57,769 nucleotides of DNA from an uncultured Pirellulales bacterium (GCA_964601185.1 CAZRMQ010000002.1:1-57769); one strand, 5' to 3'; counted from the first letter of the stretch, positions 860-22,215 are shown. Program-made: numbers and translations. The notes: generated by a model not told the origin, from the sequence alone.

Positions 860-880
860 GCGGGTAACTGATAGCCAGGC

Positions 881-1975
881 TCAATATTTTTGGAACATTT
901 GTCCCCACTCGGTTTTCATAAATTTGTGTATTCTTATTCTGCCGATTGTAGGATACCAGAGAAAGTCGTGGTACAAATTTGAGGCAAACGGCGCCCATAT
1001 AACCAACGGCGAATGCAGCAATGGCTTTTCAAGAAATCTCAAAAATCCTAATCGAAGCATCTGGTCGCCCCAGATGACAAGACTTTTTTTTGTAGTAAAA
1101 CCAAAATTCACATCGTCAATTGTTTCGCCGCGTATTTCTATATTATCGGGATTGCCGATTCCGAGGCCCATTTCGTCGCACATACGAATATAAGGAATCT
1201 CCATAGGATTATAGCCCATCATCCTGGCTGCTACCGCGTCAATAGCGACAGAATCGGCGCTTGCGAGGATGAAGTTCTTGATTTTGGGGACCATTGTTCT
1301 CGGCCCTGCTCCGTCACCGCAGACTGTTCCGTCCATTACAGCGAAAATTCCCGGATGCAGCTCTTTCTGCATAATCATTAAGTCCACAAGAACTTCATGG
1401 ATATATTTGTGTGCGTAGTGCCGTACTTCTTTAAGCAGGCCGCCAAAGGCATTTTTGATCGCTCCTGTAGTCTGGGAGTGGCCGTGTGTTTTTAAGGTCG
1501 GAAGATGAATTACATTTTTCCCTATAAACATCTCCGGGATTTCAATGCCTTCGGGAAAAATCTGGTCCAGCTTCAGAAGTTTGTGTTTGAATTTATATTT
1601 AATCCAATCCGTATCAGGCAGTGATATGAAATTAAGTCTATATTTGTCAAGTATAGGCATCCATTTATTATTATGAGCGCCTTTGACAGGGTTGGTGACG
1701 ACTGTTTTGTTTTCGACGGGCCAGAGTTTTTCTGCTGAGAAACCATCCTCAATTAGAGTCTTTACTACGCCTTCCACCTGCCAGGGCTGTGAGGAGCAAG
1801 CCGGGAAATATTTTGTCCAGGACAGGTTAAGCTTTATAAGAGTATCGTTGTCCTTAGAGATGAATTTGCCGTATTCAGCGAGGTGCATAGCTTCTCTGTA
1901 GGTGTCTAAGACCGTTTCGGGAGTGGTTTTCAACACTGCTACTAATGATTTCTGGTTTTGTGAATTTTTATTCAT
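881..1975 (-). CDS. DUF362-like protein of unknown function
   Basis: 364-aa ORF, 21 nt upstream of the HAD gene on the same strand. The N-terminal pattern (VAVLKT..PETVLDTYREAM..AEYGKFISKDNDTLIKLNLSW) and central GHSQTTGAIKN..GG resemble DUF362 proteins as I recall them. This is not verified by search. Confidence 0.55.
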   Translation of the reverse strand: MNKNSQNQKSLVAVLKTTPETVLDTYREAMHLAEYGKFISKDNDTLIKLNLSWTKYFPACSSQPWQVEGVVKTLIEDGFSAEKLWPVENKTVVTNPVKGAHNNKWMPILDKYRLNFISLPDTDWIKYKFKHKLLKLDQIFPEGIEIPEMFIGKNVIHLPTLKTHGHSQTTGAIKNAFGGLLKEVRHYAHKYIHEVLVDLMIMQKELHPGIFAVMDGTVCGDGAGPRTMVPKIKNFILASADSVAIDAVAARMMGYNPMEIPYIRMCDEMGLGIGNPDNIEIRGETIDDVNFGFTTKKSLVIWGDQMLRLGFLRFLEKPLLHSPLVIWAPFASNLYHDFLWYPTIGRIRIHKFMKTEWGQMFQKY

Positions 1976-2123
1976 AGGTTTCTCTTATGAGAATCGGTAT
2001 TAAAACAAAAGTTTAGACTATACAACCGTTAATTTCCTATTGTATACTAATCCCGATTTATTGGGATGACAACAATAAAGCTACAACTTGACTATATATT
2101 GGGATGTTTCGGCAGGATATAAA

Positions 2124-3023
2124 ATGAAAGATTACATTTTGCTAATGCGTCCCTCTCACTGGTGCAAGAACATTTTTCTTTTTGTCGGCCTGATATTCGG
2201 AGGCAAGCTTCTCGGGTCGTCTGGTGAAGTGCTCTTGGCTATCGGTAGTTCTGTTGGTGGTTTCTTCTGTTTTTCTTTGGCGGCTTCGGCTATCTATGTT
2301 CTTAACGATATGATTGATGCCCCAATGGACCGCCTGCACCCCGCAAAATGCAAAAGGCCAATTGCCACCGGCAAGGTTAGCATTGGCTCAGCCGCTTTGT
2401 TGTCCATTGTAAGTGCTATTGTTGCAGTTGTCGGCAGCTTCATTCTTGCTCATAATTTTGCACTCGTTATCTTAACATATATAGTTCTGATGATTCTTTA
2501 CTCGCTTGCGCTAAGAAGAGTGATGATCCTTGACTGCGTGGTAATATCAATCGGCTTTTGCCTTCGGGCGATTGCCGGAGCGGTTGTAGTGGATGTGCCT
2601 ATCTCGCCCTGGCTGATTATTTGTACATTCGCTTTGAGTCTGTTTTTGGCGTTCGGCAAACGTCGCAGTGAAATAGCTATGTTAGGTGAAGACAGCGAGT
2701 CGTTTCGCAAAACTCTGGCCGGCTATACTCCGGAGCTGCTGTCACATATGCTTGACGTAACAAGCGGCCTGGCTGTGATATGCTTTTTGCTTTATGCAAT
2801 GGACGACAGAACGTTTAATATCTTTGGCACTAATAATCTTGTCTATACTACGCCGTTTGTTCTGTACTGCGTATTCCGATTCAGCGCGCTAATACAACAG
2901 GGCAGATTCTCCGGTATAGTAGAGCTTATACTGCATGATTTGCCGTTTCAAATTGGCTTTGTGCTTTGGATTATATCTTGTATTGGAATTATTTATGCTG
3001 AGAAACTCAGTTTCGTGAAGTGA
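2124..3023 (+). CDS. UbiA-family prenyltransferase, decaprenyl-phosphate phosphoribosyltransferase (DPPR synthase)-like
   Basis: Polytopic membrane ORF. The first Asp-rich motif NDMIDAPMDRLHPAKCKRPIATGKVS matches the NDxxDxxxDRxHPxKxxRPxAxG signature of DPPR-synthase-type UbiA enzymes. The ORF track starts at 2088; ATG 2124 is preferred because AGGA lies 6 nt upstream. Confidence 0.8.
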   Translation: MKDYILLMRPSHWCKNIFLFVGLIFGGKLLGSSGEVLLAIGSSVGGFFCFSLAASAIYVLNDMIDAPMDRLHPAKCKRPIATGKVSIGSAALLSIVSAIVAVVGSFILAHNFALVILTYIVLMILYSLALRRVMILDCVVISIGFCLRAIAGAVVVDVPISPWLIICTFALSLFLAFGKRRSEIAMLGEDSESFRKTLAGYTPELLSHMLDVTSGLAVICFLLYAMDDRTFNIFGTNNLVYTTPFVLYCVFRFSALIQQGRFSGIVELILHDLPFQIGFVLWIISCIGIIYAEKLSFVK

Positions 3024-3040
3024 CTAAAGTGCCTTAAATT

Positions 3041-3090
3041 CTTGTCTCTCCACAGGATGCCTCACGGCAGAGCGAAGTCGAGAGAATGGA
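3041..3090. repeat. 50-nt dispersed REP-like repeat, copy 1 (copy 2 at 39839..39888)
   Basis: cttgtctctccacaggatgcctcacggcagagcgaagtcgagagaatgga matches 39839..39888 at 46 of 50 positions by hand alignment. It lies in the intergenic/5-prime region before the CapD-like gene and inflates the ORF-track start at 3042. Confidence 0.75.
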
Positions 3091-3143
3091 TTATAACTTT
3101 TGCTCACTTTAGGCTCTTTATATTCCGCGCGGGACTACGGTGC

Positions 3144-5126
3144 ATGGAAGATATACCTGAGATGTTCACAAATAAGCAGCTAAAAAACAACAATCAAAAC
3201 CAATTAAAATTTCTCACCTTACCTTCCACAGGCCTGCTTGCGTTTCGCAAGCCACTGATAATCCTTGCTCATATAAACGCCTTTGCTGTTTCTCTGTTAC
3301 TTTCTTTTTTGGTAGTAAACGAGATGCAGTTCAAACAGGCATGGCTTGATGTATATCCAAATCTGCTAATATTTGTTCTCATCGTCAAGCTGCTGGTATT
3401 CGGGCTTTTCAGGCAGTACCGTGGCTGGTGGCGTTACGTGGGCATTTCCGACCTGCTCGGGATACTACGCGCGTCGTTGTTTAGTACCTTGATTATAGTA
3501 GCTTTCTGGTTTTCGGTGAGCTATATAGATTCTATTCGTCCGAATTTACCGCTAGGTATGGACAAGGTCGCTGAAGGCGTATGTGTGGCAGATATGTTTA
3601 CAACGGTACTAATACTCGGCGGATTACGGATGATAATTCGGCTGTACTATGAAGAGTTTCGCACCGTAGAAAGTGGACGATTGAAACGGTTTCTCATTGT
3701 CGGCGCAGGCAATGCAGGCGAAGCATTACTGCGTGAAATCCACCGTATGCCTGTTGCCGAATATGAGGTTATCGGTTTTATCGATGACGATCCTGCCAAG
3801 CGAGGTATAAGTATTCATGGAATATCCGTTCTCGGGACTGTTGAAAAGCTGCCCGAAATCTGCGCCGACCGCAATATCGAAGAAATCGCCATTGCTATGC
3901 CATCGGCTACGCACCAGCAGTTAAGGCGAGTCATTCAGGTTTGCGAGGGCACCAAAATCCGGTTCCGGACGGTGCCGGCAATTACTGATATTGCATCAGG
4001 TAAATTCCGCGTTTCTCAGATTCGTGACATCGATATCAATGATTTGCTTGGCAGAGAGGCTATCCAGCTCGATCTGGATTTAATAGAGGCCTTTGCAAAA
4101 GACAAAATTATCCTTGTCACCGGGGCCGGCGGCTCCATCGGCTCGGAAATGTGCAGGCAGCTATGTAAATTTGAACCAGAATTGCTTCTGCTTGTTGAAC
4201 AGGCTGAAAATCCACTTTTTTATATTGAAAAGGAGCTGCACAAGCAGTATCCCCAAGTCAGCATGGAAACGATAATCTGCGACATTACCGACAAGCCGCG
4301 CGCGGAGGAAATTTTCGAGCAGTATAAACCGCAGGTCGTCATTCACGCTGCCGCCCACAAGCATGTACCCTTAATGGAGCTAAATCCGTCTGAGGCCATC
4401 AAAAATAATGTTGGAGGCACAAAAACTGTTGCCGACGCCGCGGATAAATTCGGCATCACAAATTTTGTAATGATAAGCACCGATAAAGCCGTCAATCCAA
4501 CCAGCGTAATGGGTTCATCCAAGCGGATTGCGGAGATATATATACAGGACTTAAGCCGGACAAGTAACACTCACTTTGTGACAGTTCGTTTCGGCAATGT
4601 GCTTGACTCCGAAGGCTCGGTTGTGCCTATATTCAAAAAGCAAATAGCCGAAGGCGGCCCGGTGACCGTTACGCATCCCGACATGAAGCGATATTTTATG
4701 ACCATTCCTGAGGCGAGCCAGCTCGTCCTTCAGGCGGCAACTATGGGAAAAGGTGGAGAAATCTTCGTGCTCGATATGGGTGAGCCAGTAAAAATTGTAG
4801 ACTTAGCCAGGGAGCTTATTACCCTCAGCGGCTTCAGGCCCGGCGAAGATATCGAAATAGTCTTTACCGGCCCCAGGCCGGGCGAAAAGCTATTTGAAGA
4901 GCTGCGGATAAAAGGCGAAGACATGCAGCACACAAGGCATCCCAAAATCAGTATATGGAAGAACATCCCAATGGAACGAGACAGGCTTCGTGCCGGCATA
5001 GGCGAGCTTATGAATATTGCCAGGAATCAAAACCACAACGAAATAATTCAAAAAATCAAAGAGCTTGTCCCTGAATACATTGGCAATGCTAATAATGTAA
5101 ACCAAGCCCCGCTTGTATCCGTGTGA
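3144..5126 (+). CDS. Membrane-bound polysaccharide biosynthesis protein, CapD/WbpM/PglF-type NDP-sugar 4,6-dehydratase
   Basis: N-terminal TM helices, then two Rossmann motifs (FLIVGAGNAGEAL and ILVTGAGGSIGSE) and the family block MISTDKAVNPTSVMGSSKRIAE. The start is uncertain (ATG 3144 or 3162) because the ORF-track start 3042 runs through a REP-like repeat. Confidence 0.85.
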   Translation: MEDIPEMFTNKQLKNNNQNQLKFLTLPSTGLLAFRKPLIILAHINAFAVSLLLSFLVVNEMQFKQAWLDVYPNLLIFVLIVKLLVFGLFRQYRGWWRYVGISDLLGILRASLFSTLIIVAFWFSVSYIDSIRPNLPLGMDKVAEGVCVADMFTTVLILGGLRMIIRLYYEEFRTVESGRLKRFLIVGAGNAGEALLREIHRMPVAEYEVIGFIDDDPAKRGISIHGISVLGTVEKLPEICADRNIEEIAIAMPSATHQQLRRVIQVCEGTKIRFRTVPAITDIASGKFRVSQIRDIDINDLLGREAIQLDLDLIEAFAKDKIILVTGAGGSIGSEMCRQLCKFEPELLLLVEQAENPLFYIEKELHKQYPQVSMETIICDITDKPRAEEIFEQYKPQVVIHAAAHKHVPLMELNPSEAIKNNVGGTKTVADAADKFGITNFVMISTDKAVNPTSVMGSSKRIAEIYIQDLSRTSNTHFVTVRFGNVLDSEGSVVPIFKKQIAEGGPVTVTHPDMKRYFMTIPEASQLVLQAATMGKGGEIFVLDMGEPVKIVDLARELITLSGFRPGEDIEIVFTGPRPGEKLFEELRIKGEDMQHTRHPKISIWKNIPMERDRLRAGIGELMNIARNQNHNEIIQKIKELVPEYIGNANNVNQAPLVSV

Positions 5127-5235
5127 TAATCGTAGTTCTAATACATAGGTGGGGTTAGTCAATAAATAAAACTATTTGCCGCGGCTAAGTGCTTTTTTAT
5201 TAGTCAACTTAAGAAACTACTTTTCAGGACTTCCC

Positions 5236-6660
5236 CTATTTTTCATCAGGCTGCTTTTGAAGTGATTTTCTTTCTATCCAACTTTGAAGCTCAGCCTCCT
5301 GCTTATTTTCTTCCTGGATAATCTGCTCAGGTGATTTAGGATTTTTAATGGCTGTAAGGTCCTCCAACTTCACGCCGGAGAATCCTACTTTACCCTTAGG
5401 GTCGTCGCAGCTAAATCTTACCCAGACAGTAATTTCATTCGCATCAGACGGTAAGGTGATGTTAGAGCTATTTGTGCCATCTTTTAACTTGGTATAGCCG
5501 GTAATAGCAAAATCAAATTCCCTTTTTGTCGTTCTATCCGGCCCAAAGGCAGCGATCTGCGCTGCTTCTGGACCGCTTTTGCTGTTCGGGAGAGACGCCA
5601 ATCCCGCCATCTGCTTGCCTGTTAAATCTTTTTTATCTTTACCGGTAGGTACTGCGTGGATTGAGAATGACCAATTGCCTTTGACGGAATCCATATTAAG
5701 TGTATTCATACACGCGGTGAGCCTATAGGTATGCCCAGGTATCAATCCAAGGAATTTCCTGTATATGCCATGCACAGTGCCCTTCGGCACAGCCTTTATA
5801 ACTTGATAAAATGGTTTGGTCAAAAGTGTTTTGGAAAGAGTACCAAAACGGGCATAAGATTCTATTTCCCGCTCTTCAAAAGATATTTTACTTTGTTCTT
5901 TGACCGTACTCCAGGATACCCAATTTGGAGCTATACCTTCGTTAAATGGAATACCGAATGTTTCTTCTTGGCAGTAACCATTATCGCTTACGTGAATAGC
6001 AGTAGCATTTGAGGGTATATTATCTCGAAAACCAACCACCCAAAAATCCATATCGTCAATGTTCAATGGTATTCTTTCTCTATCAATAATAAAACTGTTT
6101 GAGTTACCATTAATTTTCCTGCCAAACCTATTGTCAAAATCTGTCCAATAACCATTAATCAAAATGAAATCATATTCACTAGAAGTGTTTTCCCAATTCA
6201 GTAAGAGTTCATCTTTTTCTTTATGGTATGAACAGCTTAGAAATCGGGGCGGTTTTGGAATACCCAGACCCGTCTCTGTACCTCCTATTATGTATGATTC
6301 GGGTCCGAATGGTAATATTAGAACATCTTCCGATGCATGCGCCTGAAAGCCACCAACCCATAGCCAGTGGGGATCGTATTCAACTCGTCGAGTTTGTCTG
6401 GAGTGGTGTGCATTTATGGTATCTGCAAGACGTTGTGCAATAGACTCAACCGATTCGCCAGTCTTGGTTTCAATTGAAACATGTTTAACATATCTATTTC
6501 CTGTCTTAGCCAAAACAAGTATACCCCCTGAAGCTTCTCCTTTAAATGATAACCCCCATGTTGGGAATCTTCCGCCAGATCCACAAATTTTTTGATTTGA
6601 AAAAACTACAATTAACAGTATAAAGATTATTATATTTAGTGGGTATTTTTTTAACTTCAT
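5236..6660 (-). CDS. Secreted protein of unknown function, last gene of the 12729->5236 operon
   Basis: 474-aa ORF with an N-terminal signal sequence (MKLKKYPLNIIIFILLIVVFSNQ). The C-terminal ~150 aa look beta-rich/jelly-roll-like (ITVWVRFSCDDPKGKVGFSGVKLEDL). I recognise no family. Confidence 0.6.
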   Translation of the reverse strand: MKLKKYPLNIIIFILLIVVFSNQKICGSGGRFPTWGLSFKGEASGGILVLAKTGNRYVKHVSIETKTGESVESIAQRLADTINAHHSRQTRRVEYDPHWLWVGGFQAHASEDVLILPFGPESYIIGGTETGLGIPKPPRFLSCSYHKEKDELLLNWENTSSEYDFILINGYWTDFDNRFGRKINGNSNSFIIDRERIPLNIDDMDFWVVGFRDNIPSNATAIHVSDNGYCQEETFGIPFNEGIAPNWVSWSTVKEQSKISFEEREIESYARFGTLSKTLLTKPFYQVIKAVPKGTVHGIYRKFLGLIPGHTYRLTACMNTLNMDSVKGNWSFSIHAVPTGKDKKDLTGKQMAGLASLPNSKSGPEAAQIAAFGPDRTTKREFDFAITGYTKLKDGTNSSNITLPSDANEITVWVRFSCDDPKGKVGFSGVKLEDLTAIKNPKSPEQIIQEENKQEAELQSWIERKSLQKQPDEK

Positions 6661-6693
6661 TGCAATCTCCTTTCAAATGGAATCGGATTTTAG

Positions 6694-7863
6694 TTAGCCT
6701 GGGTAACCAGGGTGATCGCTAGATGGACCCGGACAAGGTTCAGAATATGTAGGGTTTGGCCATGGTGCACAGGGACACTCGCTTCCGTCCTCTCTCCACC
6801 AATTTATGCATCCTACACCATCTACACAATCAAATTCTACATACCTATAACACCAATAACCCCAACATCCTTCCCCACTCCAATCATATTTATGATCATT
6901 ACAAGATGCCTGATTCGTTTTAAGAAAAAGTTTTTTCCCAGGATGGGAATATTTATATCTAAAAGCGTTCAAACCGCCGATCCAAACACAACAGCCAACT
7001 TCAGTTTGTCTTGGTTGTGGTGTGCCCACATTGTACCACCAGGAATATGCCTTTAACCCCAAATGATTCCCAGTATCACAATATACCCATAAATAATTGT
7101 CACAATCATCCATAGTAAAAGCCTGATTTTCTGGAGGACAAGACCATGCCGGCATAAATTCCTCCCAATATCCAGTTGAAGACGGAGTCTTAACAATAAT
7201 TGTATCCCCTGAAGCGGAACCACCACATTTTGCTCTTATAACGTAATCTCCTAATTTAGTAATACCTGAAAGCGTTGTAGTCGCAGAGCCGGAAGTCGGA
7301 TTCAACGACGGATTTGCTCCATCCGGCTTACTTACAATTTCCCAGTGTGGCTCACCAGAAGGAAATGACATACCTGGGGGACTAGGTTTTGCCTCAAGAT
7401 CCACAGTTTCACAAGGACACACGTATATAGGTCCTTCATCTGAAGTCCCGGCTTTTACTACCTTGTCCACCCCCACGAAGGTAAACTGGATTTCCGGCTG
7501 AGGAGGCACAGGTATTTCATCTGCTCCAAAATAATACCCAAGGTACTGAAACCATAGACTTTTAGGGCCGCCAGGTATTATTCCTTCCACATAAAGTGTA
7601 GCCGGAAAAGAGCCATAACCACAAGCATTCCACGTTGTACCATTTGTTATCTCATTCTGCTTCAAGGCGTTACTCCAGACCTTAATAATTTGAGGTTGAT
7701 CTATGGCCAATCTAACTTTATCATTGCATCTCGGAGTGTCAACAGAAAGGTGAATCGCAACCAGATCATCCTCACCTGACACCGTTCCATCATCCAAGTC
7801 TGAAATGCCGTTGTCGTTATTATCATCATCATTTACAGCGACATAATAACTATCAGCAGACAA
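6694..7863 (-). CDS. Unknown protein with a TSP3-like acidic Ca-binding stretch, a GEPHW Ig-like module and a Cys/Trp-rich C-terminal domain; the 5-prime end is probably disrupted
   Basis: 389-aa ORF with only a TTG start and no signal peptide. The same frame is open upstream to a TAA at 7949..7951, and another frame is open from TTG 8051. It shares the module GEPHW...AKCGG...IIVK with the 725-aa protein upstream. Confidence 0.55.
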   Translation of the reverse strand: MSADSYYVAVNDDDNNDNGISDLDDGTVSGEDDLVAIHLSVDTPRCNDKVRLAIDQPQIIKVWSNALKQNEITNGTTWNACGYGSFPATLYVEGIIPGGPKSLWFQYLGYYFGADEIPVPPQPEIQFTFVGVDKVVKAGTSDEGPIYVCPCETVDLEAKPSPPGMSFPSGEPHWEIVSKPDGANPSLNPTSGSATTTLSGITKLGDYVIRAKCGGSASGDTIIVKTPSSTGYWEEFMPAWSCPPENQAFTMDDCDNYLWVYCDTGNHLGLKAYSWWYNVGTPQPRQTEVGCCVWIGGLNAFRYKYSHPGKKLFLKTNQASCNDHKYDWSGEGCWGYWCYRYVEFDCVDGVGCINWWREDGSECPCAPWPNPTYSEPCPGPSSDHPGYPG

Positions 7864-8047
7864 GCTATTATCAACAACCCAAACCGTGATACTGTCAGCA
7901 TCCGAGCCATAGTAATTCCAAACCCATAAGATAGGCGTAGATACGAAGCATTAGGATTGAGGCTATAAATAAAATTATTCGCTGCGGCTATGTGATGATT
8001 TAGAGGTCCACTAATCGTTTCTTTCCCTAATAAAATTAAACACACTT

Positions 8048-8962
8048 TCAATGTGGTTTTCGAACCCGAAAAAAGTTTTTATCGAAATTCGCATAGTAAC
8101 TTGGTAGCCAGGATCCTTCTTCGACCTTAAGAAAATAAAAACCAATGCTTTTACCATCGTTCCACCAGTTTACCATGCGAAACCAATAATTATACGACAT
8201 CGATGAATTATCCCAATCAGGATTGTTGGGATCCATTTGCCGATGGATTTCAGCATCTTCCTTCGGAGGAGAAACACCAGCTTCATGAACTGTTTGAGGT
8301 CTGCCCCAAACCGCTCGATCCTCCGGCATATACTTTACTAACTCGGGGCGGAATGAGTAGCTTGCAATCTTCTTGTCGAGTCTCTTTAATGGTACCTTTT
8401 CTCCGTCCGCGCTCCATCTATAACCTGTTTTATTAAATATTTCCAAGCAAAGATGCTTTGCATTTTCAATCTTCTCCTCGCGCTCCGCCCCAGTGATTCG
8501 GCCCCCCAAAGGAGAAACTTTTATAGCAAAGATGCTCGCAGTTTGAGAGATATCTACCCTGTAGTCATTTATCTCCCAAGTTGCGCGGACCACGTCTCGC
8601 CCCTCAAACTCATCTCTGATAAAAATAAGCTCAGGATTCTTATCTGGGAGCCATTGCTTTGCAATAACCTTGTTCAGCCATTCCTGGCACTGCTTTTTTG
8701 GCCATACCAACTCAACTGCATTATTATCTACTCGGTTCGGTCCATTCAGAACCGATGGTGCTGGCCACTGAAAAAGCCTATCCATTGGAGGGCGAATCAC
8801 CTGATCCAAACGTGTTGGATCAAGTTTATTAGCAGCATTTTTTCCTGACCCGCCAAATCCTATGCTCATTGCAGCAAAAACCACAACCAAAAACGTGTAG
8901 ATGATAACATGTTTATTCTGACTCGTTTCCATTTCTTTCTCCTTTCTAAACTTTGTGCCCAC
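8048..8962 (-). CDS. N-terminally membrane-anchored protein of unknown function
   Basis: 304-aa ORF with one hydrophobic helix near the N-terminus (HVIIYTFLVVVFAAMSIGFGG). It sits in the operon between the PKD/Ig protein and the Cys/Trp-rich protein. No recognisable motif. Confidence 0.6.
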   Translation of the reverse strand: MGTKFRKEKEMETSQNKHVIIYTFLVVVFAAMSIGFGGSGKNAANKLDPTRLDQVIRPPMDRLFQWPAPSVLNGPNRVDNNAVELVWPKKQCQEWLNKVIAKQWLPDKNPELIFIRDEFEGRDVVRATWEINDYRVDISQTASIFAIKVSPLGGRITGAEREEKIENAKHLCLEIFNKTGYRWSADGEKVPLKRLDKKIASYSFRPELVKYMPEDRAVWGRPQTVHEAGVSPPKEDAEIHRQMDPNNPDWDNSSMSYNYWFRMVNWWNDGKSIGFYFLKVEEGSWLPSYYANFDKNFFRVRKPH

Positions 8963-9020
8963 TGCTTAATCACTATTTCATTTTTTTTCACGATACCACC
9001 TTAATCAGACTTTTACTGGT

Positions 9021-11198
9021 TTATGGTGCCTCTACCCATGGATCTTCCATACAGGTCAAGAATGTGTATGGTGTGCTTGTACCGACTCTGTATTGCCATT
9101 CAACCGATGTAAATGCGGTTTTAACCACATCCTTGGCATTCGTAAATATTCCTACGCCTAGTGCATAGTGATAACCAGTGAACAAGCACGTGGCTTCGTA
9201 AGCATTGGCGTTCCCATTGCCATCGACATGTGCTAATCTTTCATATATGTAATCGTCGTCGTGGGTAGTTGGATCTGGATGTCCAGTTCCAGGTACTATC
9301 GTGCGCCATTGGGTATCCACAGGAGAAGATGCAGCCGCATATGTGCCGTCTGGATTGGCATGGCAATACCTTATTGCTCCACCACCAAGGCCCAGCATCT
9401 GGAAATGTTTGTTTACATAATCGGCAAGTCCTGGACACTGGCTACTTTCATTAGGATCATGAAGCAACCAAATTGGTGACGGCCCCCACATGGGTCCAGA
9501 TAAATCAAAGGAGCCTGAAAGATTGTTAAAAACTGCATTAGCGGGAATGTTAGGATTTGTTCCCCCTATGCCATTTGCTGCATTACATACGAATTCGATT
9601 CTCTTTTCTGTTACACTACTCCCAGATGGTGTGCCCCAAGTAACGTACACTGTATGTGATGTTGTGCTTATAGGATACCAAGTATTTGTGCCGCTGGGAA
9701 CTTTGTATTTCCAGTTAATCTGGAAATTACCACTGTATTTATTCACCTGATTTATAATGTTTCCCGTTATGCCAAGAGTAGCTGGAGCGCTGGTTAAGCC
9801 ACTGAAAGTTACATTGCTTACTTCGTTCCAGTCCTCGGTGCCACTAGCATCAATTATCATCGAAGTAGAGTAAGGGTAGGTTAGGGCCTCAGAGATCTTC
9901 AATATAAGGTTCGTCAAAGATATAGAATTAGAGTCCTTTGTAACACATACAGGATCACTCTTGTTGGCATCCGAGTCATAGACAGGATCCGTGAAGGGTG
10001 TCGTACCATCCGCCCAACCGCCCCATTGTGACGGCGTTTTATCAAGTTCATGGTCACCGCCAAAACCAAATTGATATACTGTTGGCTCCATAACCTTTAT
10101 TGTAATGGTTTTTCCAGAATCATACGAGCCGCATTTAGCTGTCAATGTGTATGTACCACTATTGGTGAAACTAACATCAATAGTTTGGCCTGTGCCGCTG
10201 ACTATCCCCGACCAATGTGGTTCTCCTGCAGGCCAGGTGCCAGATGGATATGGAACGCCTTTAAAAGTATATTTTGCACTCTTAAGAACTGTAATAGTGC
10301 TACCACCATAAATAGTACACCAGCCATAGTAATCATTTGGATATACCTCCAAGTTGCTAACCTCCATAACGTAGACAGTTTTGTATTCGTAGGCGTTTCC
10401 GCAAGCTGCTGTTACCCCATATCCGCTTGCCGTGTACCAACGCGTGGTAAATGTTGTGCCGGCCCCTGTATCTGGGCTGCCTCCTGGGGCACTCCAAGTG
10501 ACAAGGTCTCCATGACCTTTAGGGTTGGTTATTGCCGTGAAGGTAATATCGCTGCCGACACAAACAGTGTCATTGGAGCTTATATAATCAACCTCAACAA
10601 CGGCAACTTGCTTTTGCATGCTGTTATTACAGCCTGTAGCGGTTACTGTTTTCATACCTGCTGTGTCCCATCTGGTGGTGTAGCTTCCACCGCTTCCCGA
10701 TGTTGGGCTATCACCACCGCTCCAGCTTATACATTCATACTTTCCCGGAGGGCTGGTTGTTACCGTGAATGTAATATAACCGTACCGACACACAGCATCT
10801 GCCGAATTCACACTGACTATATTCACCGGCAGTACATTAACAGAACGTGTACGGCTGTTTGTCTTATCCGAGCAACCAGGCCCTGTTCCGCAACAACATG
10901 GCCGGTCATCGTCGGTGACCGTTAGAGTTACAGATTTTTCACCTGTACTGCACCATTTAGTTGTAAAATATTTACCAGCTCCCGTAGACGGTGATGCCCC
11001 TCCCGATGCAGACCAACCCTCTCCAATAGAGCAACCGTCTGGATCGTAGGAAGAAGATGTAAAGGTTGCTTGGTCCCCGCAGTATACGGAACTCGGCCCA
11101 CTAAAGTTAGCCACCGGCGGCGAGCAGGCCGCATAAACTACAACGGTTACACAAGTAATAACGAAACCACAGCAGAAAATTATGACTTTCTTATTCAT
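9021..11198 (-). CDS. Secreted PKD/Ig-like repeat protein with a transglutaminase-like (Cys-His-Asp/Glu) C-terminal domain
   Basis: 725 aa. Signal/anchor MNKKVIIFCCGFVITCVTVVVYA. A PKD-like block (ANFSGPS..ATFTSSSYDPDG...VTLTVTDDD) is followed by three further ~70-aa W-S-x-GG-SP-x-G...TT(R/K)W...V(T)A.CG modules. The C-terminus carries SQCPGLADYVNKHFQMLG, then YCHANPDG/LAHVDG and AYEAT. Confidence 0.7.
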   Translation of the reverse strand: MNKKVIIFCCGFVITCVTVVVYAACSPPVANFSGPSSVYCGDQATFTSSSYDPDGCSIGEGWSASGGASPSTGAGKYFTTKWCSTGEKSVTLTVTDDDRPCCCGTGPGCSDKTNSRTRSVNVLPVNIVSVNSADAVCRYGYITFTVTTSPPGKYECISWSGGDSPTSGSGGSYTTRWDTAGMKTVTATGCNNSMQKQVAVVEVDYISSNDTVCVGSDITFTAITNPKGHGDLVTWSAPGGSPDTGAGTTFTTRWYTASGYGVTAACGNAYEYKTVYVMEVSNLEVYPNDYYGWCTIYGGSTITVLKSAKYTFKGVPYPSGTWPAGEPHWSGIVSGTGQTIDVSFTNSGTYTLTAKCGSYDSGKTITIKVMEPTVYQFGFGGDHELDKTPSQWGGWADGTTPFTDPVYDSDANKSDPVCVTKDSNSISLTNLILKISEALTYPYSTSMIIDASGTEDWNEVSNVTFSGLTSAPATLGITGNIINQVNKYSGNFQINWKYKVPSGTNTWYPISTTSHTVYVTWGTPSGSSVTEKRIEFVCNAANGIGGTNPNIPANAVFNNLSGSFDLSGPMWGPSPIWLLHDPNESSQCPGLADYVNKHFQMLGLGGGAIRYCHANPDGTYAAASSPVDTQWRTIVPGTGHPDPTTHDDDYIYERLAHVDGNGNANAYEATCLFTGYHYALGVGIFTNAKDVVKTAFTSVEWQYRVGTSTPYTFLTCMEDPWVEAP

Positions 11199-12729
11199 AT
11201 TTATGTTCCTCGTCTACTAATTCCTCTATTTCTGTAGAACTCCACTGCACAAGAAGATCACGAGCAGCTTCAACAGCCTTGCAATCCGGATAATCTGAAA
11301 GGAGCCTTTCGCAGGCATGAATTATTTGAACGGCAGCTTCTTTTTTGGAAATACGTCCTGAATTTTCTAATTCCTCAAGGCAACGGGCAATTAGAAATTG
11401 GGCGTGCCAGGTGTATTCGTAGTAAGGCCAGTTATCAACTACCTTTTGGTAATACTCTATGGCCTTTTCATATTGACCTAATTGGCGATAACATTCAGCA
11501 GAGAATTGGTAAGCCTGAGCGGTAGTAATCGAAGGAGGCAGCTCTTTAATTATCCTTTCCCACACAGCAAGAGCTTTTGTGAAATATTCAATAGACTTGT
11601 CGTTAGGTTCTTTTTTGCGATCATCTTGTCTATGCTCAGAAAAAGCCTGTGCCCAATATTGTTCACCAATGCTGAATACGCCGTTAGGCATCTCGGGATG
11701 GTCTCTGAACTCGGAAATTATCTTGTCAATCACCTTCTGCGTAGCCGCATCATTTCCACGAGCGATATCTATTCTTGCCAAGCCCACCTTTGCCCACAAT
11801 AGTATCTTGTTGCCAAACCATTTGTTAACAATGTATTTGTAAAGGTCAGTAGCTATTTCATATTTACCGGTATCGCGATACGCGTCGGCGATAAGGTTGG
11901 CAACCTCAGGCAGCCGATTATCATCGGCATAATCAATGAGTATTTGCTCTTTAAGCGAGTCGCCGGTATGGAAATCGGAAAGTCGGATACTTGTGACCGC
12001 AAGACCTGTCTTCGTCCAGATAGATTCGGAAGCAGAGATGCCTTTTGCAGCCAGTTCATACATTTGGCGAGTCTTTTCGCTGTTGATGTTTCGCCAGCGG
12101 AGATTGTCGCCGATGACGTTTAGAGCTTGGTAAAACTGCGGATGGTTTGAGTAATTTGTGCTGAGCTTTTCAAAGGCTGCATCTGCGGCGTCGTTGTTTT
12201 TCAGACACGTATTGCAGACGACTAAGCCTGCCATCGCCCAAACATTGTAATCACTATTGGGCCAGTTATCCAGAACGTATTGATAGCTTGAGGCTGCATT
12301 GTTATGTCTGTTTTTATTGCGATATGAATCCCCGACGTGAATCAGTGCTTCAGCTATATTGGGATGGTCGCGAAAATCGGTGACAAGTTTTTGCCGGGAA
12401 GATTCAATAAGCTCGTTTTTGCCCCAGCTAATATACAAGCAAGTAAGCTTTTCCTGTGCTTGAAAGGCATAGTCGGTTTGCGGGTGGTCTGCGACGATTT
12501 TGTTATAGATTGTCTCAGCCTGCTCGTATTGGCCATTTTTGAATAAAGTTTCCGCTTTTTCAAGTTGGGTGGAGGTATTAGCATAAGAAATGCAAGCCAG
12601 TTGAATTATAAGGATAGTACATATCCATAGCGCAACCTGTCTTGAGCGCAGCCTGCACTGAGCACTGTTGAAGTGTCGAAAGAATCGTGTAATTCCTGTC
12701 CTGAGCGTAGTCGATGGTTTGGTAAGCAT
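11191..12729 (-). CDS. TPR-repeat protein with an N-terminal membrane anchor
   Basis: 512 aa. Hydrophobic segment VALWICTILIIQLACISYA, then repeated 34-aa TPR-like units (e.g. AETLFKNGQYEQAETIYNKIVADHP, AECYRQLGQYEKAIEYYQKVVDNWP). The 3-prime end overlaps the next gene by 8 nt. Confidence 0.75.
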   Translation of the reverse strand: MLTKPSTTLRTGITRFFRHFNSAQCRLRSRQVALWICTILIIQLACISYANTSTQLEKAETLFKNGQYEQAETIYNKIVADHPQTDYAFQAQEKLTCLYISWGKNELIESSRQKLVTDFRDHPNIAEALIHVGDSYRNKNRHNNAASSYQYVLDNWPNSDYNVWAMAGLVVCNTCLKNNDAADAAFEKLSTNYSNHPQFYQALNVIGDNLRWRNINSEKTRQMYELAAKGISASESIWTKTGLAVTSIRLSDFHTGDSLKEQILIDYADDNRLPEVANLIADAYRDTGKYEIATDLYKYIVNKWFGNKILLWAKVGLARIDIARGNDAATQKVIDKIISEFRDHPEMPNGVFSIGEQYWAQAFSEHRQDDRKKEPNDKSIEYFTKALAVWERIIKELPPSITTAQAYQFSAECYRQLGQYEKAIEYYQKVVDNWPYYEYTWHAQFLIARCLEELENSGRISKKEAAVQIIHACERLLSDYPDCKAVEAARDLLVQWSSTEIEELVDEEHKYE

Positions 12730-12993
12730 AATTAGTCTCCCGTATTGTTAAAAATTCCGCTCCCCGCTTGCGCGAGGACAAGTTTTTTTGATTTTTTGCC
12801 GGCTGGTTATTTAAGAGTGATTCCGGTTGCTTAACCGGTTTTTGTATCTCCGCCTCTTTTGATGACTGTTAAATTGCACTAAAATCAACTTAACAAGTGA
12901 TGTATAAACCTCTCAGATAGAATTGTCAAGAAAATTCTCAAAAATACCGGAATACCATTATGATTATATGGCTATTCTTACAACAAAAAAGGT

Positions 12994-13022
12994 TTGCATT
13001 TATAAAACAGCTAAGGTATAAT
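12994..13022 (+). promoter_or_regulatory. Near-consensus sigma70-type promoter for the HTH/acidic membrane protein gene
   Basis: TTGCAT (12994..12999), an exact 17-nt spacer, then TATAAT (13017..13022), about 88 nt upstream of ATG 13110. Confidence 0.45.
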
Positions 13023-13109
13023 CTAACTGTAATAATTGTGTTTCAATCCAAAAGACGGGTCTTAACAGCTTGAAAAACCAAGTTGTTATCGAATTGGAGA
13101 TGAGCGATT

Positions 13110-14339
13110 ATGGCTGGTATGTTTTATTCACTGAAGGAGGCAGCCGCGAAGCTCAACATGACAGAGCAGGAAGTAAAAGAGTTGGCCAGGCAGGGCAAAT
13201 TGCGCGAGTTTCGTGACGGCTCCAATTTACTGTTTAAGGTTGACGAAGTAGAAGCTCTGATGGCTGATACAGGTATTGCGGTATCTCAAGGTGAGCCGCT
13301 TCCATCGGAAGAGCCTGAAGAGTTTGCAGAGGCTCCGGAATCCGAACTAACATTTGAGCCGGAAGAAATAGGAGAAGCTGAGCCGGAGCCAGAGGCGGAA
13401 GAAAAAGCATTCGAGCAGCCTATTGAGCCTGAAGAGGAAATAGCAGGAGAAGAAATAGAGGAAGAAGCAGGAGAAGAAATAGGAGAAGCAGCAGAGGAAG
13501 CAGAGGAAGAAGGAGAGGAAGAAGAGATTTTATTGGCGCCGGAAAGCGGGGCACCGGCAGCGGAGGGTGATTTAACCAGTGCTGACACCGCCCTGTCCGG
13601 TGAAGGAGTCAACGTACTTGGCGAAACGGACCGTGATTATCAGCTTACAGACGATACTTTGGCTGAGACAACAATCGCACCGGGAACAGGCGGCACCGCG
13701 GGCATAAGCGGCACAACCGGTGAGGCCTTGCTGGAAGAGATTGAAGATGATGTTAGCCTGGATTCTTTCGGCAGCGGCTCAGGACTGCTCGACCTTTCGC
13801 TGCAGGCCGATGACACCTCATTAGGTGGTATTCTTGACGAAATCTACACGGCTGAGGGTGGGGAGGAAGGTCAGGAATCAGACGAGCCTGCTTCAGCGAT
13901 GGACATTGTTGCTGAGGCGGAATCAGCAGCGGGCGGAATTCGGGAAGAAGATCTGATCGGTCCAACCCCCCTAAGCGTGGCCCCGATGGTTGCGACGATG
14001 GCTCAGCCATATATCGAGGCGCAGCCGGACGCCATGAGCGACTCGTTGGGCATTATGTTGTTTCTGCCACTGTTGGCACTTGTTTATGCGGGGATAGTAA
14101 CTGTCGCTGCGCTTAGAGATGTAATGCCTACAATTCTCGGCAAGATAAAAACGCCGTATATTGGTTTATACATCATGGTTGGCTTTTCAGTAGCGGCACT
14201 TTTAACATTCGGCGTAAGTTTTATGCTTAGCGGCGGAATCAGCACAGCCGGCACAAAGGAAAAAAAGCCGAAAAAGCCAAAAGAGAAAAAGCCCAAAAAA
14301 GAGAAAAAAGCTAAAAAATCGAAAAAGACGGCTTCGTGA
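13110..14339 (+). CDS. HTH (excisionase/MerR-like HTH_17-type) protein with a polyacidic linker, two C-terminal TM helices and a Lys-rich tail
   Basis: N-terminus FYSLKEAAAKLNMTEQEVKELARQGKLREFRDGSNLLFKVDEVEAL, then a ~100-aa E/P/A-rich tract and the motif GSGLLDLSLQADDTSLGGILDEIY. Two hydrophobic helices follow, and the protein ends KEKKPKKPKEKKPKKEKKAKKSKK. GGAG lies 8 nt upstream of the ATG. Confidence 0.75.
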   Translation: MAGMFYSLKEAAAKLNMTEQEVKELARQGKLREFRDGSNLLFKVDEVEALMADTGIAVSQGEPLPSEEPEEFAEAPESELTFEPEEIGEAEPEPEAEEKAFEQPIEPEEEIAGEEIEEEAGEEIGEAAEEAEEEGEEEEILLAPESGAPAAEGDLTSADTALSGEGVNVLGETDRDYQLTDDTLAETTIAPGTGGTAGISGTTGEALLEEIEDDVSLDSFGSGSGLLDLSLQADDTSLGGILDEIYTAEGGEEGQESDEPASAMDIVAEAESAAGGIREEDLIGPTPLSVAPMVATMAQPYIEAQPDAMSDSLGIMLFLPLLALVYAGIVTVAALRDVMPTILGKIKTPYIGLYIMVGFSVAALLTFGVSFMLSGGISTAGTKEKKPKKPKEKKPKKEKKAKKSKKTAS

Positions 14340-14441
14340 GAATCTGAGGATTAACCTTTAGCGGAACAATTCATCATCGACTCTTTAAGTAGGTAAAATC
14401 ATATCTGCGCAGATATTTCCTCAAAAGAGGCAATTTTAAGC

Positions 14442-15869
14442 TTACTCATTTTCTTTTTGGATAGGCCAGAAAACAGAATCACCATTATCCGCCCATAATC
14501 TTCTCGGCTCGCCTCTTGAATTCTTTCCAATTTGACCGCCGTCATCGGTAAAATTATAGCTAAAGCTGTAGAGGATAAAATCATCATCTGTTCTTTTATA
14601 AACCAACGGCTTATTGCTAAATGGGTCCATCGGCAATTCTTTCAAATAACCCGATGTCACCAGCTTATCAAGGCCGGCAGGGTATTCTTTGTTATCCAGG
14701 CAATACTGCTTGAGAGCTAAAATCATTACCGTTGCTTCATGCGAGATTTTAGCCCGATATACTATTTCAGAGACCCGATCGGCGGCTGGCATAAAGTAGC
14801 GTAATAAAAAGTACCTGTATTCAGATAGGGAAAAGAGCATTTTTTCAGCGTTATCAAGCTTGCGAATATGTTTTTCATACGGGGTTATTTTTGCATTCTC
14901 AGCACATCTATTATAAAACTCGTTGGCCTTAGACACTGTTTCATCTCGCCTTGCATGTATAATGCTTGCTGCGGTTGAAAGAGGCGTGAGCAGTCCGAAA
15001 TCCTTCCACATTTCAAAATCATTTTCATTGTCCATCCACCAGCCCCATTTTTGAGGAATCAGGTGGCCGCCTCCCAGTCCTCCATCGGTGAATACGTTTT
15101 GGACTATATCCAGAAATGCCAGTCTTTCACCTTCCGTATTCATTAGTGGATAACCTTGTTCATAAATCTGTGATAACTGTTGCTGGACTTGTTTTAAGTC
15201 GGTTGTCGGAATATCCGTGGTTGCTAAGATATTCAGTATTTGATTATGGGCAAGTGCACTGATAGCTGTCCCCACCAGCTGTTCAACAATCGTTCCCTTT
15301 CCCTGCCAATGACTGCCGGCTCGTGCAACAGCAACGCAATCTTCAAGTCCCTGGCGCGTTTGTCCTTCCTTTACATGTATGCGTGATTGCCAAATACCGA
15401 GCCTTGCCAGATGTTTGATCCTGTTTAGGTTCGGCAAAGTGATATCCCACAAAGTTCTTTTCTTGCTGTTCGGATCACATGTATATTCTTTGTAGCAATA
15501 TGACTTTGAGCTGCCGGCCTTAAATTCCTGCCAGGCGGCTTCGTTCTCTTTAAACCAGGGACTGAGATATTCATATTCGAGATCTGATAGCGCAATTCGA
15601 GCGGTCTTTGGCAGATAGTTATAACGCTTCATCCATTCACGAAGCACTGCGACTGTAACTGCTTCGAGAAAATTGGGTGGAACCTTATTCAGTCTTGCCC
15701 AATTCGTCAGTTCGGCGTCTGGAAAACCATCAGCTTTCGGAAACTCTACTCCGTCATGAGTTGAAACCGTTACAGGCTTACCTTGCTTAATGGCTTCAAC
15801 AGCATGATATATCATTAATTTAAATTGGATATATTGCGGTGCTTTCGTCTCTTTGAAAATAGGCACCAA
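14442..15869 (-). CDS. C-terminal part of the fourth PadR-linked membrane-protein paralog; its frame continues upstream to the TAG at 15942..15944
   Basis: 475-aa ORF. It carries the paralog motifs IVEQLVGTAISA, FTDGGLGGGHL and a GspG-like end YPAGLDKLVTSGYLKELPMDPFSNKPLVYKRTDDDFILYSFSYNFTDDGG. It has no N-terminal TM helix or head of its own. Confidence 0.6.
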   Translation of the reverse strand: MVPIFKETKAPQYIQFKLMIYHAVEAIKQGKPVTVSTHDGVEFPKADGFPDAELTNWARLNKVPPNFLEAVTVAVLREWMKRYNYLPKTARIALSDLEYEYLSPWFKENEAAWQEFKAGSSKSYCYKEYTCDPNSKKRTLWDITLPNLNRIKHLARLGIWQSRIHVKEGQTRQGLEDCVAVARAGSHWQGKGTIVEQLVGTAISALAHNQILNILATTDIPTTDLKQVQQQLSQIYEQGYPLMNTEGERLAFLDIVQNVFTDGGLGGGHLIPQKWGWWMDNENDFEMWKDFGLLTPLSTAASIIHARRDETVSKANEFYNRCAENAKITPYEKHIRKLDNAEKMLFSLSEYRYFLLRYFMPAADRVSEIVYRAKISHEATVMILALKQYCLDNKEYPAGLDKLVTSGYLKELPMDPFSNKPLVYKRTDDDFILYSFSYNFTDDGGQIGKNSRGEPRRLWADNGDSVFWPIQKENE

Positions 15870-15941
15870 ATTGTATCGGAAACATTTAAGAATTATGGCT
15901 TGCTGCTCAGCAGATAAATTGTCCCAGTATTTCTTATTGTC

Positions 15942-16544
15942 CTAAATCCATTTAAGAACTTGTGTTTGTTGCTCTTCGCTTAAATCTGTGAATCGAAATA
16001 TCTCCTCCAATTTTCCCCGCCAATCACGATAGGAAATAAACTCCTCTACTACTCCACCTCTGATAGGCTCTATGTACAGATTGCTGGCTTTTTCATAGTA
16101 TGGCCAGGCGTTATCTTCGTCCCGAACCTGTGGCCGACTCATCTGGTTTAAAAGAGCTAAGTAATCTACACTAATGGCTGGTTTGCCGGTTAAAAACCAG
16201 ATAGTATAAACAGTGAAACACAAAATCAGAATGCCTATAGTCTGAAATGTTCTTACAATGACGGTTCGCCAGAGCGGCCTGCAGCGCTTCTTGGCTCGGC
16301 GTAATAAAACCGCAAGCAGTTTCACATCGCCAAACTCTGATATTAGCTTCTGGGTCTTTTGCTCTTTTTCTTGGTCGCCGTCACAATCTTTCAGCTCATC
16401 TTCAAAATGCGCCGCCAATTCCACCAGCACATCTCGCTGCACTTTCCTGCGATAGCGCATTTTGTTTACGATCAATTTTATGAAATCTATCGCGCGGGCT
16501 GGCAGCCGATTGAATTGTGATTCAGTTTCTTTCCGCTTTTCCAT
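15942..16544 (-). CDS. N-terminal part of the fourth paralog (DUF1700/HAAS-like head plus TM helix), ended by a single in-frame TAG
   Basis: 200-aa ORF. Its first 100 residues differ from the 16559..18232 paralog at 9 positions by hand count. The TM helix is TFQTIGILILCFTVYTIWFL. It stops at TAG 15942..15944, in the same frame as the 14442..15869 ORF. Confidence 0.6.
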   Translation of the reverse strand: MEKRKETESQFNRLPARAIDFIKLIVNKMRYRRKVQRDVLVELAAHFEDELKDCDGDQEKEQKTQKLISEFGDVKLLAVLLRRAKKRCRPLWRTVIVRTFQTIGILILCFTVYTIWFLTGKPAISVDYLALLNQMSRPQVRDEDNAWPYYEKASNLYIEPIRGGVVEEFISYRDWRGKLEEIFRFTDLSEEQQTQVLKWI

Positions 16545-16558
16545 ATCGCCTTATCTTA

Positions 16559-18232: not shown

Positions 18233-18247
18233 ATCGCTATGTCCTAT

Positions 18248-22198: not shown

Positions 22199-22215
22199 AT
22201 AAGAATAATTCTTAT
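22199..22215. promoter_or_regulatory. Fur/PerR-type operator candidate (8-1-8 perfect inverted repeat)
   Basis: ATAAGAAT-A-ATTCTTAT lies 50 nt upstream of the Fur-family gene ATG (22265) and sits within an AT-rich promoter region. Confidence 0.5.

Follow-up and report, generated by a model that had tools for sequence, protein, structure and literature searches.

Heads and matched partners in a strain-variable locus of an uncultured Pirellulales bacterium, a possible polymorphic-toxin-like system

A stretch of 57,769 nucleotides from an uncultured Pirellulales bacterium (GCA_964601185.1 CAZRMQ010000002.1:1-57769), called the window here, carries five open reading frames (ORFs), ORF1 to ORF5, at positions 5236-12729 of the minus strand. 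Judged by comparison with related loci, these genes form a strain-variable island and not one fixed operon. The unit that repeats elsewhere is a triad, which consists of an exported TPR protein, a secreted protein built from a stalk, a module and a variable head, and an exported or anchored partner. By analogy with known systems, the locus may belong to an undescribed family of Sec-dependent polymorphic-toxin-like effector/immunity systems, with an orphan cassette, and a probability of about 0.5 is given to this reading. The triad architecture itself is well supported, and confidence in it is much higher than in an antagonistic function. Members of the family are found in Planctomycetota (Phycisphaerae, Sedimentisphaerales), and others occur in Verrucomicrobiota and Omnitrophota.

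ORF1 (11191-12729, 512 amino acids (aa)) encodes the exported TPR protein, which is the constant first gene of the triad. ORF2 (9021-11198, 725 aa) encodes the stalk, the module and a variable head of a class called TG1. ORF3 (8048-8962) encodes 304 aa from a GTG at 8962 and is the N-terminally anchored partner of the TG1 head; the Joint Genome Institute (JGI) gene call has a shorter product of 294 aa. ORF4 (6694-7950) is a 5'-truncated orphan head gene whose frame is open from 7950 and which would encode 389 aa (6694-7863) from a TTG. ORF5 (5236-6660, 474 aa) encodes an exported partner of Cys/Trp-rich "CW" heads. A sequence-only reading of the region had listed five co-directional genes on the minus strand, and the ORF listing contains all of them. 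Three of the spacings that it gave hold, an overlap of 8 nt between ORF1 and ORF2, 58 nt between ORF2 and ORF3, and 33 nt between ORF4 and ORF5. It had also taken almost all of the products to be secreted or anchored. Hydrophobic N-terminal segments, read from the sequence, bear this out for ORF1, ORF2, ORF3, and ORF5, whereas ORF4 has no signal peptide. A scan for promoters and terminators gave counts close to the shuffled expectation, and an intergenic terminator on the minus strand was not found.

The exchange of part of this locus is seen in comparison with its closest relative, locus L011. By blastn, the window and L011 are 85-93% identical at 337-5216 and 10082-16466, and no similarity was found over 5217-10081. 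This variable island comprises the ORF2 head, ORF3, the ORF4 remnant, and ORF5. Its left breakpoint lies at about codon 372 of ORF2, at the end of the "GEPHW" module, and its right breakpoint lies 20 nt beyond the ORF5 stop. L011 carries a different head-plus-partner segment of 2.3 kb in its place; it has a TPR protein, an ORF2-like protein, and an unrelated partner, and lacks ORF3 to ORF5. ORF2 and its L011 counterpart (P0001) share 82% protein identity before the junction and 28% after it. Four further protein pairs are 83-92% identical before the junction and 35-45% after it. The converse is found in P0141 and P0140, whose N-terminal parts are 53% identical and whose heads are 84% identical. 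This mosaicism, with the converse case included, indicates that heads move between scaffolds together with partner genes. The junction of module and head is a recombination boundary at which the head is exchanged with the downstream partner gene. Horizontal acquisition, which had been proposed as a possibility, is consistent with these data, as the region behaves as a horizontally exchanged island replaced between the conserved L011 flanks.

The same gene order was found on at least 22 JGI metagenome contigs, and the five families occur together only in the window's own clonal population. Salt-marsh samples in which the contig is present include JGI 3300031337, 3300031365, 3300031654, 3300031698, 3300032029, and 3300032062. 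The 4865-bp island sequence was 100% identical across six independent metagenome assemblies of this population. Thus, the truncation of ORF4 is not an artefact of assembly or sequencing, and the population is clonal at this locus.

About 45 related loci were compared. The sources included a metagenome scan with the module alignment, which added 29 loci, and a scan of GTDB with the ORF5 alignment, which gave 18. Loci were classified by ORF calling and by BLAST and hidden Markov model (HMM) searches, and the regions after the module and the downstream proteins were compared all against all. Homologues with an organism name are in metagenome-assembled genomes (MAGs) labelled Phycisphaerae, Sedimentisphaerales, and Planctomycetota; more distant ones are labelled Verrucomicrobiota and Omnitrophota. 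Relatives of ORF2 are preceded by a TPR gene and followed by a single gene for an exported protein of about 250-365 aa; no gene that resembles ORF4 or ORF5 is near them. Relatives of ORF5 follow a TPR gene and a gene for a protein with a CW C-terminus like that of ORF4. Pairs of the ORF2/ORF3 type and of the ORF4/ORF5 type thus occur independently of each other elsewhere. The partners in all loci have a signal peptide or an N-terminal anchor.

At least seven unrelated head classes were found downstream of the same GEPHW module; the C-terminus is exchanged, and the remainder of the protein is kept. The family of the downstream gene co-varies with the type of head in five classes. CW heads (ORF4, L016, L019, L021, L022, L025, L027, L033, L036-39, and L040, and in genomes L050-L062) have partners of the ORF5 family. 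TG1 heads (ORF2, L007, and L008) have partners of the ORF3 family, and TG2 heads (L011 and an orphan in L038, 70% identical) have partners of the L011_364 family (41% identical). The two further classes are L024/L028 (heads 55% and partners 61% identical) and L034/L041 with L032 (heads of L034/L041 81% identical, partners 62% and 30-34% identical). Among loci of the CW class, partner identity correlates more closely with head identity than with module identity (Spearman rho 0.49 vs 0.30), a result that is only suggestive as the pairs are not independent. The active pair in the window is ORF2, with its TG1 head, and ORF3.

Some heads can be recognized as enzymes. The head in L035 is a protein-arginine deiminase (PAD and PAD_M, E=5e-69). 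At L035 1-4126, this PAD-headed module protein is followed by a membrane-anchored HEAT-repeat protein, which is an unusual setting for a bacterial PAD. HExxH motifs were read by eye in the heads of P0012, P0146, L043 ("HEFGHTRGLGH"), and L016_109. HEAT-repeat partners with a signal peptide or an anchor are present in L035, L041, L016, and L069. Searches of most partners against Pfam and NCBIfam gave no match. One Sedimentisphaerales contig (L054 11-7328) carries two tandem triads of TPR protein, head protein, and partner. The first of these is of the CW/ORF5 type; the PKD protein of the second is short, and its partner, of 501 aa, is unrelated.

ORF2 is divided into constant and variable parts. 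The constant part (10083-11198, minus strand, aa 1-372) starts with a signal peptide that ends in YAA directly before C, followed by a stalk of PKD and immunoglobulin-like (Ig) domains. ORF2 and its intact relatives share a hydrophobic signal peptide, read from the sequence, with a small-x-A end and then C or W. In the AlphaFold2 (AF2) model, ORF2 has five Ig/PKD domains at aa 24-380 (predicted local distance difference test (pLDDT) >90) and a beta-sandwich at aa 416-520, and the alpha/beta domain at its C-terminus is poorly modelled. Confidence is low beyond aa 520, and pLDDT is <50 over much of aa 562-725. The Pfam PKD_4 model scored 25.8 bits, below its 27-bit cut-off. The stalk matched the PKD domain of ColG in PDB by sequence (E 0.006), and Foldseek gave template modelling (TM) scores of 0.86-0.88 to the same domain. 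The N-terminus therefore has the PKD fold (PF18911/PF00801), which upholds the earlier recognition of PKD/Ig repeats, and the five domains stand where central presentation domains would be expected. PKD and Ig-repeat surface proteins dominated the Foldseek results, which were uninformative for the head.

The GEPHW module (10062-10295, minus strand, aa 302-379) is Ig-like and is the last constant domain, directly before the variable head. Within the window, its HMM matches solely ORF2 and ORF4. Residues W329, G348, and V369 are invariant across the family. A module shared by ORF2 and ORF4 had been noticed by eye, and BLASTP between the two proteins confirmed it (E=4e-7). The ORF2 family is small, with 14 matches in a word-indexed search, and a pattern scan of GTDB genomes for it found nothing.

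The variable head of ORF2 (9021-10082, minus strand, aa 373-725) contains the beta-sandwich and an alpha/beta domain with Cys588. This near-invariant cysteine is part of a "G-x-C-x-x-x-A...LG" motif and is located where a helix begins. The end of ORF2 had been called papain/transglutaminase-like. No Pfam match to Transglut_core (PF01841) was found for the ORF2 head at the gathering threshold, and profile and single-sequence searches of PDB with the TG head gave no match. Sub-threshold Transglut_core matches were found in two homologues, P0004 (17.7 bits vs a 23-bit cut-off, E 0.004) and P0009 (E 0.084). The ORF2 subgroup does not have a Cys-His-Asp triad; Cys588 is kept, the His column contains Y, T, or H, and Asp is not conserved. 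An N-x-[FY]-E-[GA] motif is found where the His/Asp region of the triad would be expected. Motifs compatible with Cys, His, and Asp in canonical order were read by eye in the TG2 subgroup (P0001, P0011; L011) and in L026. A transglutaminase-like nature is plausible for the family of the ORF2 head because of the Cys588 motif, the weak Transglut_core matches, and the triad-like motifs of TG2 and L026. The ORF2 head itself may be non-catalytic. Thus, a weak signal remains of the earlier assignment, and the catalytic His and Asp that it would need are not conserved.

Homologues of ORF3 lie directly after TG1-head genes in L007 (41% identity; family HMM 1e-104) and in L008 (1.3e-7). The ORF3-family HMM did not detect the partners in two other TG1-like loci, L014 and L068. 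Thus, TG1/ORF3 pairing holds in three of five TG1-like loci, and the partners in the other two are either diverged or different. The ORF3 family comprises 164 clusters at 50% identity. P0255, a BlaR1-type M56 peptidase/CarboxypepD_reg/ankyrin protein of 2265 aa, ends in an ORF3-like domain that is extracytoplasmic. This arrangement suggests that the domain can be used as a binding module or an extracytoplasmic sensor.

ORF4 contains a PKD remnant, an acidic beta-sandwich, the GEPHW module (7180-7500), and the CW head (6697-7179). It matches the CW HMM at 4e-58 and the module HMM at 4e-57. The frame is closed upstream by a TAA at 7951-7953, and there is no ATG, GTG, or TTG before the TTG at 7863. 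In five intact relatives (P0136, P0137, P0138, P0141, and P0143), the upstream part holds a signal peptide and a PKD domain. When P0143 was aligned with the window by tblastn, the alignment started at residue 102 of P0143, and ORF4 is short by about 100 aa. The stretch PILWVYNYYGSDADSITIWVVDN of P0143 aligns with PILWVWNYYGSDADSITVWVVDN in the window, which is located ahead of the TTG. In no frame of the window did tblastn find a trace of the first 100 or so residues of P0143. The start, the signal peptide, and most of the first PKD domain are therefore missing from ORF4. It is what remains of a CW-head gene after loss of the 5' end, not an intact anchored protein, and ORF5 is its intact cognate partner.

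An alternative start for ORF4 at 8051, which would have given an overlap of about 4 nt with ORF3, was rejected as it lies in another frame (8051 mod 3 = 2; 7863 mod 3 = 0), with the TAA between. The signal-like hydrophobic peptide at 8051 is an off-frame reading of a PKD strand, and P0143 confirms this strand in the ORF4 frame. The CW head had no match in Pfam or NCBIfam, and PDB gave a marginal similarity to antibody VH (E 0.004). No DNA similarity between ORF2 and ORF4 was found by blastn. The ORF4 region is therefore best read as displacement debris and not as a ready-made switching system.

The ORF5 AF2 model (pLDDT 90.1) has an N-terminal alpha/beta domain, an FN3 domain, a CBM-like jelly roll, and a C-terminal helix. 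Foldseek returned generic FN3 and CBM folds and nothing else. The ORF5 family has at least 202 homologues. A gene of this family lies directly after the CW-head gene in all ten metagenome loci (10/10) as well as in the window, and after the CW head in 9/14 genome loci by HMM, or up to 12/14. At L018/L052 135-3487, ORF5 is represented by three paralogs in tandem, two of 460 aa and a truncated one of 179-182 aa, which are 87-97% identical. They are located at the start of an 86-kb MAG contig, where the upstream context is lost, and are reminiscent of poly-immunity arrays.

ORF4 and ORF5 are not the only orphan C-terminal cassette. A CW gene and an ORF5 homologue in L036/L038 are followed by a 5'-truncated TG2 head and then by a TG2-type partner. 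The N-terminus of this truncated head (MKRKFHTPEQIVRKLRDA) is IS3-transposase-like by our own reading, and Pfam finds nothing in it. L041/L042 and L016/L056 contain more start-less fragments, each followed by an exported protein. At L016 9497-10767 (= L056 8788-10058), a CW/ORF5 pair is followed by a start-less fragment of 109 aa with an HELKH motif and acidic DxDxD stretches, and an exported HEAT-repeat protein is next. The fragment and this protein may be a further orphan pair, a metallopeptidase head and its partner. In L070, the head gene is split between the PKD and the acidic domains.

ORF1 was recognized as a TPR protein in the sequence-only reading, and Pfam agrees (TPR_6, 2e-23). The YbgF/CpoB- and BamD-type models of NCBIfam were just under their cut-offs. 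ORF1 is 89% identical to the TPR protein of L011, and its 3' end overlaps the start of ORF2. A TPR gene is located upstream of the head-protein gene in about 20 loci, mostly with an overlap of 4-8 nt. The signal peptides of ORF1 (about aa 31-50), of the L011 TPR protein, and of many head proteins end in a similar "[ST]-Y-A" motif. In head proteins, it is followed by Cys or Trp, as in ORF2 (aa 1-25) and in relatives in L008, L016, L021, L029, and L041. This ending may be a common processing or sorting signal.

A possible mechanism can be put together from these parts. Sec would carry all of the proteins across the inner membrane. The TPR protein would be a periplasmic chaperone or export helper of the stalk protein, as its translational coupling and BamD/YbgF-like repeats suggest. 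The head would act as an effector, an enzyme in some relatives (e.g., the arginine deiminase) and maybe a non-catalytic one in ORF2. The partner would bind and neutralize its cognate head in the periplasm of the producer, as an immunity protein or inhibitor. ORF4 and ORF5 would be a displaced pair that was resident earlier, and ORF5 may still protect against CW heads of neighbours.

Several observations weigh against an effector/immunity function. At 250-490 aa the partners are large, and they are exported; most known immunity proteins differ in this. No route of export across the outer membrane was identified. Neither the ORF2 nor the ORF4 head has a recognizable active site; the former lacks the conserved transglutaminase His and Asp and any Pfam or PDB match, and the CW head has no recognizable enzymatic motif and is weakly like an Ig V domain (E 0.004). 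The CW/ORF5 pair is kept across phyla at 30-55% identity, which a stable housekeeping complex would fit too. The orphans are cut at differing positions and look like debris rather than neat cassettes. Switching of cassettes between ORF2 and ORF4 within the genome is unsupported, as they share no DNA similarity.

Some of these points would suit surface machinery without any antagonism, an explanation that is considered distinctly less probable. The triad would then be a surface or periplasmic complex of an Ig-stalked head, which could be an enzyme or a binding domain, with a dedicated partner that serves as anchor, regulator, co-receptor, or zymogen inhibitor. It could function in nutrient acquisition, protein modification, or adhesion, and the diversity of heads would mirror that of substrates and not conflict. 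The FN3 and CBM-like domains of ORF5, in a genome that has many glycoside hydrolases and lectin-like proteins, are in line with this, as are the retention of the CW/ORF5 pair in Planctomycetota, Verrucomicrobiota, and Omnitrophota, the likeness of the CW head to a binding domain, the missing catalytic His and Asp of the ORF2 head, and the use of an ORF3-like domain as the extracytoplasmic domain of a BlaR1-type sensor. Such machinery leaves unexplained the swap of head plus partner at the module junction between flanks that are about 90% identical, the 5'-truncated head remnants beside intact partner genes, and the unrelated protein-modifying heads on one scaffold.

The locus could also encode a variable surface antigen or receptor. 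Its exposed head would diversify against phages, predators, or grazers, or for kin recognition, and the partner would co-evolve as an assembly factor or recognition counterpart of the head. The mosaicism of N-terminal parts and heads and the strain-specific islands are what such an antigen would produce, and an Ig stalk is typical of surface display. This is improbable given that bona fide enzymes such as PAD are among the heads, that the heads have unrelated folds and are not variants of one fold, and that there is neither a diversity-generating element nor a silent homologous cassette that shares DNA identity with the expressed one. Least credible of all is the model of the sequence-only reading, one five-gene operon for envelope assembly or modification, with the TPR protein as scaffold, ORF2 as a transglutaminase cross-linker or protease, and ORF3 to ORF5 as its substrates or partners. 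The tight spacing, the common orientation, the export of all products but ORF4, and the weak transglutaminase-like signal of the ORF2 family had spoken for it. The five families are together in this clone only, the nearest relative L011 does without ORF3 to ORF5, the ORF2/ORF3 and ORF4/ORF5 families go separate ways elsewhere, and ORF4 is a truncated remnant. The reading had named absence of co-occurrence in other genomes as a result that would refute it, and by this test its model is largely refuted. Downstream genes behave as head-specific cognate partners and not as shared substrates, and the ORF2 subgroup is without the His and Asp of the triad.

The polymorphic-toxin-like reading can be carried a step further, tentatively and at somewhat less than even odds. 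The locus would then represent an unrecognized polymorphic effector family of the Planctomycetes-Verrucomicrobia-Chlamydiae (PVC) group and Omnitrophota, which is Sec-exported, TPR-dependent, and PKD/Ig-stalked. Its new effector domains would be CW itself, a transglutaminase-like domain in degenerate form, and a protein-arginine deiminase that bacteria have turned into a weapon; the families of ORF3 and ORF5 would be new, large periplasmic immunity families. If true, warfare between strains, directed at the cell envelope by a route unseen in model bacteria, would be going on among uncultured Phycisphaerae of sediments. The group in which these families are common, the Planctomycetota of anaerobic sediments, has hardly any systems of interbacterial competition that have been studied by experiment. 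A role would be given to exported families now called hypothetical, such as ORF5 (at least 202 members) and ORF3 (164 clusters), and to the CW and GEPHW domains. The logic of polymorphic toxins, with a constant scaffold, a swappable head, a linked antidote, and orphan cassettes, would be seen to work with an Ig stalk, a TPR helper, and periplasmic antidotes. New candidate folds of envelope-acting effectors would be on offer together with their inhibitors. The island of head and partner could also serve as a strain-typing marker for these uncultured populations.

The base composition of the region was examined as well. The island has a guanine plus cytosine (GC) content of 42.4% and ORF5 one of 40.1%, and the whole window has 45.5% (standard deviation 2.8% in 1.5-kb windows). 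The AT-richness seen by eye is therefore modest and is clear for ORF5 alone. A strong compositional anomaly of the island was rejected, as its GC is only about one standard deviation low. A phage origin was also rejected, as no relatives of the locus were found in viral contigs. The sharpest GC dip of the window, 34.2%, is located at 22001-23000. An ORF of the UPF0236 family at 37005-38213 is transposase-like by our own reading and "uncharacterised" in Pfam. This ORF and the dip at 22-23 kb are stronger candidates for mobile DNA than the region of ORF1 to ORF5.

Other genes of the window are for nitrogen assimilation, glycoside hydrolases, and lectin-like proteins, a content that suits an organism of the kind in which the named homologues occur. 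The stretches 42986-49498 (plus strand) and 49641-51983 (minus strand) encode two adjoining proteins of about 1050 aa that are built alike (PA14/GLEYA plus DUF1349) and, next to them, a Laminin_G_3 protein of 780 aa. All are large surface proteins of a lectin-like kind and have no relation to the ORF1-ORF5 locus. Divergent from the TPR gene, at 13110-14339 on the plus strand, is a gene for a very acidic protein of 409 aa with a weak HTH_17 match, hydrophobic segments in its C-terminal part, and a tail rich in Lys. The gene is kept at the same position in L011 and may be a regulator of the locus. The minus strand at 14442-19882 has four ORFs (475, 200, 557, and 544 aa) without a Pfam match, and a PadR gene lies beyond them in L001. 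Segments of a single gene of 669/679 aa in L011 (521-2560) match the window three times at 79-85% identity, within 12727-16466, at 17865-18154, and at 19617-19848. These matches suggest that 14442-19882 is a tandem paralog expansion and a second strain-variable region that adjoins the island.

Polymorphic toxin systems consist of tripartite proteins whose C-terminus is replaced by cassettes, with adjacent immunity genes that include Imm-HEAT proteins, and transglutaminase-like domains, inactive ones among them, are known in these systems (PMC3482391). The locus resembles those of the Sec and type II secretion system kind in its signal peptide, presentation domains, swapped C-terminal domain, adjacent partner, and stand-alone cassettes, and also in its HEAT-repeat partners and transglutaminase-like domains (PMC3482391). 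It differs in having a PKD/Ig stalk where those systems have RHS or filamentous-haemagglutinin repeats, an obligatorily coupled TPR gene, an Ig module before the head, and partners that are all exported. In addition, the CW head, ORF3, and ORF5 families match no Pfam or NCBIfam model, and the word "deiminase" does not appear in the text of that survey (PMC3482391), whereas a PAD head is present here.

The Maf islands of Neisseria contain mafA, mafB, and mafI plus start-less mafB-CT/mafI cassettes (PMC4287609). As in Maf, the gene for an accessory exported protein is directly upstream of the main gene and the cognate gene directly downstream. MafB likewise has a Sec signal peptide, a conserved N-terminal part, and a polymorphic C-terminal domain, and in both kinds of locus there are additional C-terminal cassettes, some of which lack a start codon, that are each accompanied by a cognate gene of their own. 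The resemblance is one of architecture only, with no sequence relationship, as neither DUF1020 nor MafA is present here by Pfam and NCBIfam. The accessory protein here is a TPR protein, the N-terminal part is a PKD/Ig stalk that ends in the GEPHW module, and the heads are not nucleases. The partners are large exported proteins, whereas MafI is small and cytoplasmic, and the heads here are putative toxins.

Contact-dependent inhibition (CDI, cdiBAI) and Rhs loci also keep displaced, 5'-truncated tips with intact immunity genes downstream of the main gene, and their constant and variable parts meet at a sharp junction, as found here. Unlike them, this locus has no TpsB/CdiB transporter, type VI secretion system, VENN motif, or PxxxxDPxGL motif, and its orphan ORF4 shares no DNA identity with the main gene ORF2. 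Neutralizing proteins that are exported to the compartment of an enzyme and encoded next to it are represented by the type VI secretion amidase pair Tae/Tai, AprA/AprI, and staphopain/staphostatin. No homology of these pairs to the present ones was detected, they lack a polymorphic Ig-stalk scaffold and a TPR partner, and the analogy is functional only. ORF2 is like the PF01841 superfamily in its "G-x-C-x-x-x-A...LG" motif with C588 at a helix N-terminus, and unlike it in that ORF2 gives no match, its subgroup lacks conserved His and Asp, and the fold is unconfirmed.

The sequence-only reading could match the locus to no described system, and this still stands. Nothing named in Pfam, NCBIfam, or PDB corresponds to it; ORF3, ORF4, and ORF5 have no Pfam or NCBIfam matches, and the GEPHW module, the CW head, ORF3, and ORF5 are covered by no family of the three databases. 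No description of this architecture of TPR protein, Ig stalk, head, and partner was found in the literature. Compared with known polymorphic toxins, the new features are the Ig-stalk scaffold, the obligatory TPR partner, the exported partners, and the new types of heads.

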